From assembly GCA_046761065.1 (NCBI GenBank), contig JBHIFL010000001.1, positions 72,716 through 92,715 on the forward strand: a stretch of 20,000 nucleotides of DNA, given 5' to 3'. Of the stretch, positions 5,515-7,793 are shown in pieces (position 1 is the stretch's first letter; each line of letters opens with the position of its first letter). The translations under genes and the position numbers were made by a program. The DNA is from Candidatus Heimdallarchaeota archaeon (lineage in GTDB: Archaea > Asgardarchaeota > Wukongarchaeia > Wukongarchaeales > JBHIFL01). Under the pieces are notes generated by a model. It did not search any database and was not told the origin of the DNA. It saw only the letters and a list, made by a program, of their open reading frames with translations.

Positions 5515-6144
5515 TTAGGCTTGCGAGATATATTCAGACAACGTTTCAAAAGTTAATGGATTTCCAAGGATAATTAGGACGCCTTGAATGATGCAAAGGA
5601 GACCTAAGAAGGTTGCCACTGGTTGAAACCGCAGAATCATTGTGGTAGCTTTAGTTACGTCCTCAATAAACTTGAGGGCCAAGAATACTAACAGGAATAT
5701 AATAACCATGATTGCCCCTAGGATATATTTCATTTCAATCCCTAAAATGGTGCCAGTTACTCGATCTCCATAACGGAAGCAGATTAGTGCTGCAATACCT
5801 CCCCCTGCGACGAGACCTACCAGAGCAGCCCAAGGAATGTCCTTAAACGGTTCCATAAATAGTGCAAAGCCTACTATTATCAGAAGTGTGACTGTGAACC
5901 ACCCTTGATTTAAGTATTCGTTAGTTTTGAAGATCGCAGCTGCAGTTATTAAGCCTAAAGCGCCGAAAATCCAGCCCGCATGCTTTGCAATTGTAGAAAG
6001 TGCATCGGCAATATTATCGATAAACCCTGGGAAAACATGAAGTACGTTTGAGATGAACCATGCACCTGATATTATTCCAATAATGATTAAGACGATAGGC
6101 GAGAATTCTGCTAGGGTAGAAATATAAGTAGCAATATCCGCCAA
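5515..6144 (-). CDS. Polytopic integral membrane protein, unknown function (209 aa)
   Basis: Five or six hydrophobic segments, for example PIVLIIIGIISGAWFI, WIFGALGLITAAAIF and ILGAIMVIIFLLVFLAL. TTG start with AAGGAGG 8 nt upstream. TTTTTATAT TATA-like box on the minus strand near 6188-6197. Confidence 0.6.
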   Translation of the reverse strand: MADIATYISTLAEFSPIVLIIIGIISGAWFISNVLHVFPGFIDNIADALSTIAKHAGWIFGALGLITAAAIFKTNEYLNQGWFTVTLLIIVGFALFMEPFKDIPWAALVGLVAGGGIAALICFRYGDRVTGTILGIEMKYILGAIMVIIFLLVFLALKFIEDVTKATTMILRFQPVATFLGLLCIIQGVLIILGNPLTFETLSEYISQA

Positions 6145-6271
6145 TTTGTTGTCCTCCTTACTGTTTTACCCATTCTTACTTATACCGATATAAAAAGTAT
6201 CCTAATTAGGGTCTGGGAACTTATTATTAACAGAAGACGCAGACCACACAAGACTCATTCACTTGGAATGC

Positions 6272-6624
6272 GGGGGAGTGGGAGTTGGAATGATCTGTTG
6301 TCTAGGGCTGTTGTAGCTCGATACTAACTCTCAACTTCCTAGATGAGACGATCGCCTTTCTCAGTTGAGTTCTCCCGTATCGAGCTGCAGAAGACAGCCC
6401 CCAACAGCTTATATCTCCCGAAGGATGTGAAAAAGACGGGTTGACTCCACACTCATTGCTAGACGACCCGTCCACTCGCTTCAGTGAGAGCCCGTCCGCT
6501 TTTCCTAAGCATCTTGGTTGGACGTTAGTCTAACCAAGTTCACGAGTTTACCCCGTGACTCTAGGAAACCTCCTGATAGATTTATTTCTCTAGCACCAGG
6601 CAAATTACTAACTCCTTCTCCTCC
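6272..6624 (+). ncRNA. Candidate structured non-coding RNA (~350 nt), family not identified
   Basis: About 50% GC by hand count across 6241-6540, in an ORF-free 650-bp gap with AT-rich flanks. Closing stem 6272-6288/6608-6624 has 16 pairs of 17 positions. Hairpins: 6305-6400 (20 outer bp plus 7 inner bp), 6435-6472 (9 bp), 6475-6488 (5 bp, UUCA loop), 6513-6538 (11 bp, GUUA loop). The G.U pairs in these helices would be A.C mismatches on the minus strand. AT-rich TATA-like ttattattaa at 6221-6230 and T-tract ttttctt at 6637-6643. Confidence 0.45.
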
Positions 6625-6794
6625 ATCCTAATAAAATTTTCTTCTGATCCTCATGAGGGACGGATTTTCAGAATCTATTAGTGAGGTAAGCCGTTATTAT
6701 TCTTTAGATTCGCACTCATCCTTCAGTACACAAATCTCGCTAAGACTTAAATTAATATAGAGATTATTCATCCTTTTTGAATGATTGAAAAGCC

Positions 6795-7793
6795 TTAAAA
6801 ACAATGCGGGACTAGACGAAGGTCCGATTGATCGACTTGCATATCTGGCTCGTCTTCAAATCCAAGAAACTGATTGATCATTACAGCAGCATAATTTCCG
6901 GTTCCTACAGCCATTGCAACCTGTTGAGTAATGGCTCTAACATCTCCTGCGGCCCAAATACCCTCCACGTTAGTTTTACCGCGATGATCAGTTATAATGG
7001 AGCCAGACTCAGTCAAAGCCACGCCAAGTTGGGCAGCCAGTTCGGAACGTGGAACGGCCATATAAGATGCAAAAAAATGTTGACATTCAACCTGTTGCCC
7101 ATCAGTAGTGATAAGGATCTGCTGTTGGCCCGGGGTTTTAATTTCCACACGATCTATAACTCCAGACATCCATTCAAACTCAGATTGATCTAAAACTTGA
7201 CGATCTGCATCGGTGAATGGTATAGAACTATCTTCTGTCATAAAAATGCGGATTCGCTTGGCAAAACGTTGGATCGATCTAGCAACGTGCAAAGCACTTC
7301 GAACTGTCCCTACATTCACCACTAAAATGTCTTTCCCAGCTGTCTCGGGTGCTTCACAGTTTGCACAGTAGAAGCATATCGATTTCTTACCCGCGTATGG
7401 GAGCCATTTCCGCCAATCTCCTCCCACAAGTGGGTGTTTGCGGGCTACCCCGGTGGCGAACAATAGAGTTTTTCCCTGATACTCCTCTACACCTCGTTTT
7501 GATTCGGTCCAAACATAAAATTCGGGACATGTTCCTTCGATTCTAACAACATTAGCGAAACAATATATAGCTCCAAGTGCCTTCGTCTCCTCTTGGAACA
7601 TTTGGAGTAATTTACGTCCTTCGATCGCGCTTTGCCCACATAGATAGTTGTGAATTGGATTCGTGATAAAATACAACGGGGAGGATCTTCTATCAATCAC
7701 CAACACGCGACGACGATGGTATGCGAGGTGTTTGGCCGCAGTCAATCCCGCAGGTCCACCCCCTATAATTAATGTGTCATATTTATTGCTCAT
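6795..7793 (-). CDS. Thioredoxin-reductase-like FAD-dependent disulfide oxidoreductase lacking canonical NADPH-binding motifs
   Basis: FAD motif IIGGGPAGLTAA, redox-active C143-A-N-C146 at the position of TrxR CATC, and C-terminal GIWAAGDV. The position of GGGNSA/HRRxxxR reads VVNVGTVRSA ... FMTEDSS. Confidence 0.8.
   Translation of the reverse strand: MSNKYDTLIIGGGPAGLTAAKHLAYHRRRVLVIDRRSSPLYFITNPIHNYLCGQSAIEGRKLLQMFQEETKALGAIYCFANVVRIEGTCPEFYVWTESKRGVEEYQGKTLLFATGVARKHPLVGGDWRKWLPYAGKKSICFYCANCEAPETAGKDILVVNVGTVRSALHVARSIQRFAKRIRIFMTEDSSIPFTDADRQVLDQSEFEWMSGVIDRVEIKTPGQQQILITTDGQQVECQHFFASYMAVPRSELAAQLGVALTESGSIITDHRGKTNVEGIWAAGDVRAITQQVAMAVGTGNYAAVMINQFLGFEDEPDMQVDQSDLRLVPHCF

Follow-up and report, generated by a model that had tools for sequence, protein, structure and literature searches.

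A probable archaeal box H/ACA guide RNA gene in an Asgard genome, a diverged counterpart of the Pab40/Pf7/Afu4 family

HgcG was first found as a GC-rich island in an AT-rich spacer. This RNA, named Pab40, Pf7, Pho40 or Afu4 according to the species (RF00064 in Rfam), is a three-motif box H/ACA sRNA of Thermococcales and Archaeoglobus. A second relevant system is the two-stem-loop box H/ACA sRNA of Haloferax volcanii, reportedly described by Blaby in 2011 and by Majumder in 2016. The targets of the Pab40/Pf7/Afu4 RNA are Psi2588 for motif 1, the equivalent of P. abyssi U2678 for motif 2 (a position that is Psi in Haloarcula, Halobacterium, fly and mouse), and Psi2016 in the helix-69 loop for motif 3 (PMC2377435). 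In H. volcanii, one two-stem-loop sRNA guides Psi2605 with its 5' stem-loop and both Psi1940 and Psi1942 with its 3' stem-loop, one of these two helix-69 uridines being recognised unconventionally (PMC5029457). The definition of an archaeal box H/ACA motif applied here was taken from PMC4652768 and PMC2377435; it puts the ACA at 14-16 nt from the upper stem, limits the lower stem to about 7-9 bp and the GA stem to 8-11 pairs (PMC4652768), and expects two pocket strands that pair with rRNA on both sides of an unpaired U-N.

The studied locus lies in a window of 20,000 nt (i.e., the whole stretch of DNA that was analysed), in the gap at 6145-6794 between a gene for a 209-aa membrane protein (5515-6144) and a TrxR-like gene (6795-7793), both on the minus strand. 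As the preliminary description of this DNA had stated, the gap contains no ORF of at least 60 aa and holds a GC-rich block between AT-rich flanks, with a GC content of 0.475-0.525 across 6200-6599 against 0.335-0.40 in the flanks, a setting in common with that of HgcG. The RNA sequence is single-copy in the 4.4-Mb, 234-contig, 91%-complete assembly, and a MITE or other repeat was rejected given that only one genomic copy exists.

We read the minus strand of 6607-6296 as a box H/ACA guide sRNA of ~310 nt that corresponds, in this Asgard genome, to motifs 2 and 3 of Pab40/Pf7/Afu4 and to the Haloferax two-stem-loop sRNA, with a probability of roughly 0.87. In each of its H/ACA hairpins, Cbf5-Nop10-Gar1 would be bound by the lower stem together with the ACA box, and L7Ae by the K-turn; the internal loop would hold a stretch of 23S rRNA, in which Cbf5 would isomerise one uridine per hairpin. 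The features of the locus are presented in Table 1.

Table 1. Positions of the features of the locus, in window coordinates.
Feature	Positions	Strand	Remarks
TATA-like box AAAAUUUUAUUA	6640-6629	minus	aligned with A/T boxes of homologues
Lineage-specific 5' domain, three small hairpins	6513-6593	minus	occupies the place of a Pab40-type motif 1
Hairpin A	6561-6593	minus	
Hairpin B	6542-6558	minus	
Hairpin C	6513-6538	minus	
H/ACA motif 2	6426-6505	minus	model R2
Linker between motifs 2 and 3	6401-6425	minus	UCC-UUCG-GGA tetraloop hairpin at 6416-6425; identical in L037
H/ACA motif 3, core of the rod	6315-6386	minus	R1 match of 95.7 bits; covariation; aligns with HgcG hairpin 3 in homologues
Motif 3 lower stem	6377-6386/6315-6324	minus	10 bp, AGCUCGAUAC / GUAUCGAGCU
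Motif 3 5' pocket GGGAGAA	6376-6370	minus	
Motif 3 upper stem CUCAACU/AGUUGAG	6363-6369/6330-6336	minus	
Motif 3 3' pocket AGUUA	6329-6325	minus	
Motif 3 ACA box	6314-6312	minus	TGT on the plus strand
Outer helix, 3' strand CAGCCC	6305-6310	minus	pairs with GGGCUG 6395-6400
Closing stem, 5' arm (plus sense)	6272-6291		pairs with 6604-6624

A BLAST search of 400 Asgard genomes yielded one true distant homologue, in genome G043, whose common part with the window is restricted to the centre of the rod. Two further matches were set aside as chance matches inside coding sequence. Given this yield of a single distant homologue, a covariance model was needed. A pattern scan of public metagenome contigs returned one close relative with conserved synteny, hereafter L037, in addition to the G043 record. 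The rod core (6317-6384) of these two and of the window served to build model R1. Of 151 Asgard genomes, 28 were found by R1 (95.7 bits at the window locus) to contain a single full-length match each, distributed among 8 families; a second, weaker match occurred in one genome only. The alignment of 21 R1 sequences has 89% of its cells paired, and 14 of the 17 pairs in the upper and apical stems of motif 3 present double changes. The covariation score is 0.504, versus 0.216 +/- 0.019 for shuffles (none of 500 reach the observed value) and at most 0.136 when the partners are slid. These values indicate the element is a conserved structured RNA.

In comparison with L037, identity in 25-nt bins is 76-100% across 6189-6563, with 88-100% across 6239-6463, and 68-80% across 6564-6636. 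Beyond 6637, in the 3' flank, it falls to 50-70%, with a 20-nt indel.

When folded with RNAfold, the plus strand of 6255-6645 presents an MFE of -140.5 kcal/mol (z = -6.83), and none of 100 dinucleotide shuffles is as stable. The helices proposed earlier were reproduced, namely the closing stem 6272-6291/6604-6624, the 96-nt rod 6305-6400, the hairpin 6435-6472 and the 11-bp hairpin 6513-6538. This z-score and the covariation among Asgard homologues bear out the view that the block is a real, conserved and structured RNA gene of housekeeping type. The folded structure is real, yet folding energy alone does not decide the strand: the minus strand of the same interval has an MFE of -140.0 (z = -4.96). 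Over the likely transcript (6607-6296), the minus strand folds better than the plus strand, with -115.0 versus -108.1 in the window and -120.7 versus -107.2 in the same region of L037, and a two-sequence alifold of both gives -106.7 versus -91.3. The minus-strand consensus of window and L037 has 104 pairs, 16 of which are substituted (14 one-sided, 2 compensatory), all still pairing, and the plus-strand consensus has 94 pairs, 10 of them substituted. The original assignment to the plus strand, made from G.U pairs, therefore fails. Two such pairs, 6311/6390 and 6314/6387, flank the position of the single-stranded ACA box of the minus strand, hence they are not evidence for the plus strand.

A structured plus-strand RNA of ~350-390 nt, closed by 6272-6291/6604-6624, would agree with the low z-score of the plus-strand fold, with the closing duplex being more stable on that strand (-28.7 vs -18.1 on the minus strand) and with the three G.U pairs inside the closing stem. 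However, every family-level signal is on the minus strand (homology, ACA boxes, K-turn motifs, promoter-like box), and an invariant TGT and conserved loop sequences would be left unexplained. The closing stem itself is present in the window as first drawn, but in L037 it is weaker (-19.4 plus, -14.9 minus) and shifted in register, with 3 of 19 pairs broken. We regard such a plus-strand RNA as extremely unlikely. If the locus is read as an H/ACA guide, most of the closing stem would be outside the transcript, and the mature RNA probably does not include it. The 3' arm would be situated between the TATA-like box and the putative minus-strand start, and the stem is probably fortuitous or at most a feature of the precursor.

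The family was identified through the homologues. The best Rfam match in E-value mode was RF00064 HgcG (Pab40) at 7 of 14 homologue loci, with scores of 43.2, 33.2, 33.1, 29.2, 28.9, 23.8 and 18.4 bits and E-values from 1e-8 to 0.4. All seven matches are opposite to the strand of R1, i.e., they correspond to the minus strand of the window. The Asgard homologues align to the entire HgcG model; at L043 the alignment spans the three H/ACA hairpins and their ACA boxes, and the rod is the 3'-terminal hairpin. The weak HgcG matches need care, given that sub-cut-off matches were also obtained in 8 of 14 control genomes, several of them bacterial. HgcG found no match at E<=10 in the window at 6100-6850 or 6290-6650, nor any in the whole genome.

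In the preliminary description, the locus was either a very divergent or rearranged housekeeping RNA or an undescribed one. Its identity is instead that of a diverged archaeal box H/ACA guide of the HgcG/Pab40/Pf7/Afu4 family, and hence the kind of RNA is known and ordinary. It agrees with the structural definition of archaeal H/ACA RNA wherever this could be tested, and since the scores are under the curated Rfam cut-off (a gathering threshold of 77 bits, compared with 43.2 bits for the best Asgard homologue), it is not formally a member of RF00064. The expectation that a match to a known family would remove the novelty applies here, although the match comes through the homologues and lies below the curated cut-off, with no direct match to the window. 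Rfam searches of the region gave no family at threshold, nor at E<=10.

The conclusion that the RNA is neither RNase P nor SRP RNA proved correct, with both located elsewhere in the genome: an archaeal-type RNase P RNA of 193 bits at G000:C20:16276-16651, and an archaeal-type SRP RNA of 98 bits at G000:C1:41419-41762. A permuted housekeeping RNA was rejected together with these two, with no partial Rfam matches on either strand. A 5S-like RNA was also considered, as the minus strand contains 5S-looking words; no 5S model matches, and the H/ACA features account for the conserved words. Genes for the H/ACA proteins Nop10 (84.9 bits) and Gar1 (33.3 bits) are present in the genome, both over the Pfam cut-off.

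When the homologues are aligned over their full length and read as RNA, three modules can be distinguished. As in Pab40, these are tandem H/ACA hairpins with an ACA after each. In motif 3 of the window, 15 nt separate the ACA box from the pair that closes the upper stem (AGUUAGUAUCGAGCU). In the homologues, this distance is 15-18 nt, which becomes 15 when the upper stem is taken to continue through two sheared pairs. The ACA is found right 3' of the lower stem in 20 of the 21 homologues, the remaining one having AUA (TAT on the plus strand), and the lower stems vary in sequence with pairing kept in all 21. An apical hairpin accompanies a putative GA...GA motif of K-turn type, which agrees with the definition at the sequence level, with 5' CUGAG opposite 3' AGGAAG (consensus UAUGAU) and a GA stem of 9. 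The outer helix puts the terminal ACA box inside an internal loop. Such a helix, in which the linker before motif 3 pairs with the tail after the ACA, is formed by each of the 21 homologues, although its sequence differs, and in several lineages a U-run follows it. The Asgard RNAs differ from the Pyrococcus consensus in this enclosure of the terminal ACA, and from HgcG in having a linker of 25-45 nt before motif 3 and a motif 3 5' pocket of GAGAG(AA) instead of GGUUA.

Motif 2 was located with model R2, built from module 2 of 16 other Asgard homologues, with the window and L037 left out. In the whole 20-kb window, R2 matches only 6512-6426 on the minus strand, with 29.2 bits and E = 2.2e-6, and it also matches the equivalent site in L037. 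The motif has a 7-bp lower stem (GGAAAAG/CUUUUUC), a 5' pocket CGGACG and a 3' pocket AACCCGU. Its upper stem, GGCUCU/GGAGUC, encloses an extra hairpin and AAUGAG (of K-turn type; consensus GAUGAG), and the G.U pairs of this stem would turn into A-C mismatches if the plus strand were the RNA. The putative K-turn of this motif is poorly defined. The ACA box, at 6428-6426, is 14 nt from the upper stem (AACCCGUCUUUUUC) and is present in 16 of 16 aligned homologues. The duplicated CCCGUCC noted earlier is accounted for by one copy in the region of the motif 2 pocket and lower stem, and the other in the extra hairpin of the 5' guide strand.

Motif 1 is present in most of the Asgard homologues, where it is a textbook H/ACA hairpin: UCGAGG stands between the lower and upper stems, a GAG...AUGA K-loop comes after the upper stem, and GCAAG leads into the returning strand of the lower stem and then ACA. 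In these other homologues, 11 of 14 pairs present double changes, and the covariation score is 0.609 versus 0.235 for shuffles. Model R3, built from their motif 1 hairpins, was run on 6000-7000 with filters off and found no motif 1 (best 4.7 bits, E = 1.1). Neither a regular expression nor R3 found a displaced motif 1 in the 91%-complete genome; an R3 match of 24 bits on contig C5 was judged to be an unrelated H/ACA-like candidate. The window and L037 thus carry motifs 2 and 3 only, whereas most other Asgard homologues carry all three. Other losses of modules were found: the L044 lineage is without motif 2, and the L050/L055/L057 lineage is without motif 1.

In contrast with HgcG, motif 1 is replaced in the window by the three small hairpins A-C, which L037 keeps through compatible substitutions. 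When L037 is read on the minus strand, all 11 bp of hairpin C are intact under a GAAA loop, and hairpin B has 6 bp and a GUAA loop; read on the plus strand, hairpin C of L037 would contain two A-C mismatches. No Rfam match was found for the 5' domain. This domain of ~100 nt and the outer helix could be marks of a modified RNP or of a composite RNA, in which the H/ACA module would stabilise or localise a second domain. Precedents are the H/ACA domain of vertebrate telomerase RNA and the Pab21 fusion of C/D and H/ACA, but we consider this an improbable description of the Asgard RNA.

The T-tract at 6637-6643, which would be a terminator on the plus strand, is better read as part of the minus-strand TATA-like box. 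This box aligns with A/T-rich boxes that precede hairpin 1 by 45-50 nt in several families of homologues, and conservation with L037 ends abruptly there. It is the putative promoter of the sRNA, with transcription predicted to start near 6605 +/- 5, and the mature 3' end is probably just past the outer helix, at ~6296-6304.

The orientation of the sRNA gene is that of both neighbouring genes, which raises the question of a cis-acting element, i.e., a 5' UTR of the gene at 5515-6144 or a 3' UTR of the gene at 6795-7793. High conservation with L037 extends through 6189-6295, the stretch that separates the RNA from the downstream gene, and in several families a protein gene begins 50-70 nt downstream in the same direction. 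However, the RNA recurs once per genome beside unrelated genes, which include a Trm5-like methyltransferase, a beta-lactamase-fold gene and, in G037, the 23S rRNA, where the element lies ~365 nt past the 23S. In addition, the RNA has its own TATA-like box, and its conserved positions are accounted for by the H/ACA features. A leader or trailer of the neighbouring mRNAs is thus very unlikely.

For a free-standing guide, targets were predicted in the genome's own 23S (3114 nt) and 16S rRNAs, which were both located. The motif 1 pockets of the other Asgard homologues, UCGAGG/GCAAG, are the exact complement of CUUGC-UU-CCUCGA in the own 23S, with canonical pairings of 5 + 6 bp around UU (U2668). 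Counted from the CCUCGAUGUCGG landmark, U2668 would be the position of Pab Psi2588.

In motif 2, AACCC(A/G)G pairs over 6 bp with CUGGGUU directly 5' of U2758 of the own 23S (AACCCG with UGGGUU in the window), and GACGG pairs over 5 bp with CCGUC four bases further, leaving 4 target bases unpaired. In the peptidyl-transferase centre (PTC), the uridine predicted as the target is thus U2758, which is the third U of GGGUUUAG. It would correspond to Psi2605 in H. volcanii, Psi2621 in H. marismortui and U2678 in P. abyssi, and this third U fits the spacing of U2604, U2605 and U2612 in Haloferax.

For motif 3, two registers of pairing are available to GUUAGU in the helix-69 loop, either as GUUA-UAAC before U2044 or as UAGU-ACUA before U2046. 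On the other side, GAGAG (GGGAG in the window) pairs with CUCUC of the helix-69 3' strand, the helix-69 sequence being ACUAUAAC-CUCUC. The pairing around U2044/U2046 amounts to 4 + 5 bp, with 3-5 target bases unpaired. The predicted target is the helix-69 loop at U2044 and/or U2046, which would be equivalent to E. coli 1915 and 1917. When strict contiguous pairing was demanded of motif 3, no target was found in the own rRNAs. A perfect 7-bp match to motif 3 at LSU 2621 was set aside, given its location inside an apparent insertion, and a genome-wide search with the motif 3 target pattern was uninformative, with hundreds of chance matches. Compared with textbook guides, motifs 2 and 3 pair with their targets over shorter stretches and in a less canonical way, and given that 3-5 bases are left unpaired, rather than two, the exact uridines are putative.

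These pairings bear on whether the RNA still guides. A decaying or re-purposed guide of the Pab40 type would have lost guiding altogether or kept it in one hairpin only, its conserved structure serving a chaperone-like or scaffold role together with the new 5' domain. The loss and replacement of motif 1, the short and non-canonical pairings of pockets and targets, and the capacity of the motif 2 pocket strands to pair with each other (GACGGG/CCCGUC), thereby closing the pocket, are all compatible with such decay. Against this, the window and L037 share 96-100% identity in motifs 2 and 3, compared with 50-70% in the 3' flank, the pocket sequences are conserved across 8 Asgard families, and the ACA distances are exactly canonical. 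Moreover, the helix-69 hairpin of Haloferax likewise recognises one uridine unconventionally (PMC5029457). Hence, a loss of guiding is unlikely, and an active guide RNA is preferred.

As an active guide, the RNA would share with Pab40 the order of its targets: (Pab Psi2588), the third U of GGGUUU in the PTC, and helix 69. Orthology is supported by this agreement in all three sites and in their 5'-to-3' succession. The Haloferax sRNA presents the same order of hairpins, the 5' one for the third U of GGGUUUAG and the 3' one for the helix-69 loop, and its helix-69 hairpin guides two uridines, which fits the two-register 3' guide GUUAGU found here. This correspondence rests on targets and architecture, not on sequences, and the window RNA differs from the Haloferax sRNA in its extra 5' domain. 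The H/ACA snoRNAs snR191 (yeast) and U19 (human) act on the same universally conserved helix-69 target loop by the same H/ACA mechanism. They can be likened to the Asgard RNA by target and mechanism, but they use separate hairpins for the two sites, follow the eukaryotic hairpin-hinge-hairpin-tail plan, carry an H box and lack a K-turn.

The results remove one candidate from the list of unknown RNAs, and they indicate that the Rfam HgcG model, built from Thermococcales, misses the Asgard orthologues. They suggest that the closest archaeal relatives of eukaryotes would use a single multi-hairpin guide for the most conserved ribosomal pseudouridines, i.e., those of helix 69 and the PTC, and that guide hairpins have been gained and lost between Asgard lineages. 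With a broader family model, annotation pipelines could call these genes, which would support the prediction of rRNA modifications in uncultured archaea.

Between the 3' end of the predicted box H/ACA guide RNA (the HgcG/Pab40-related sRNA) and the downstream gene for the 209-aa membrane protein, window 6189-6295 presents 88-100% identity with L037, a close syntenic relative, reaching 100% over 6239-6263. This identity is higher than that in the 3' flank of the sRNA. The features of this spacer are presented in the table below; the TTTTTATA box could be the promoter of the 209-aa gene or else the sRNA terminator.

Features of the spacer between the sRNA and the 209-aa gene
Feature	Window position	Strand
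Small hairpin CAUUC-CAAGU-GAAUG	within 6189-6295	minus
Inverted repeat	6211-6216 / 6241-6246	
TTTTTATA box	6189-6199	

When the motif-1 model, a covariance model of the first H/ACA hairpins of other Asgard homologues (a hairpin missing in the window), was applied, a match of 24 bits (E = 0.004) was obtained on contig C5 of the same genome, G000 (G000:C5:26016-26075, minus strand; 1501-1560 of extracted locus L063), inside a spacer without an ORF. In this match, AACCGUCUU pairs with AAGGUGGUU to form a lower stem of 9 bp, after which comes UACA, whereas the pocket sequences differ from those of the Asgard motif-1 hairpins. It is possibly an additional H/ACA sRNA with a single hairpin. Within the window, a weak match of 6672-6747 to the plant C/D-box snoRNA model snoR71 (15 bits, E = 5.4) is almost certainly due to chance.

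Given the 16S rRNA gene of this genome (G000:C1:440-2273) spans 1834 nt against 1478 model positions, it contains insertions of approximately 350 nt, either introns or expansion segments. The 23S gene has a ~55-nt insertion in domain V (G000:C17 ~20800-20860; own 23S positions ~2597-2651), flanked by GAGCUCACAUC and GACCUCGCGG and close to the peptidyl-transferase centre, which is possibly a mini-intron.

In G037, another Asgard genome (complete; L042 1-1136 and 1501-1575), the sRNA follows the 23S rRNA gene on the same strand, in the usual place of a 5S gene: the distance from the 3' end of the 23S gene is ~90 nt to the sRNA 5' end and ~365 nt to the terminal hairpin of the sRNA. In three Asgard families (L040/L041, L043/L045/L046/L049, L050/L055/L057), the sRNA lies directly upstream of a co-oriented gene, ~50-70 nt away, the product of which resembles Trm5/Taw22-type methyltransferases in its N-terminus (..LLPRGxQxIGDIxIx..). 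No such neighbour was seen in the window. The sRNA and the Trm5/Taw22-like gene may form a conserved RNA-modification neighbourhood.
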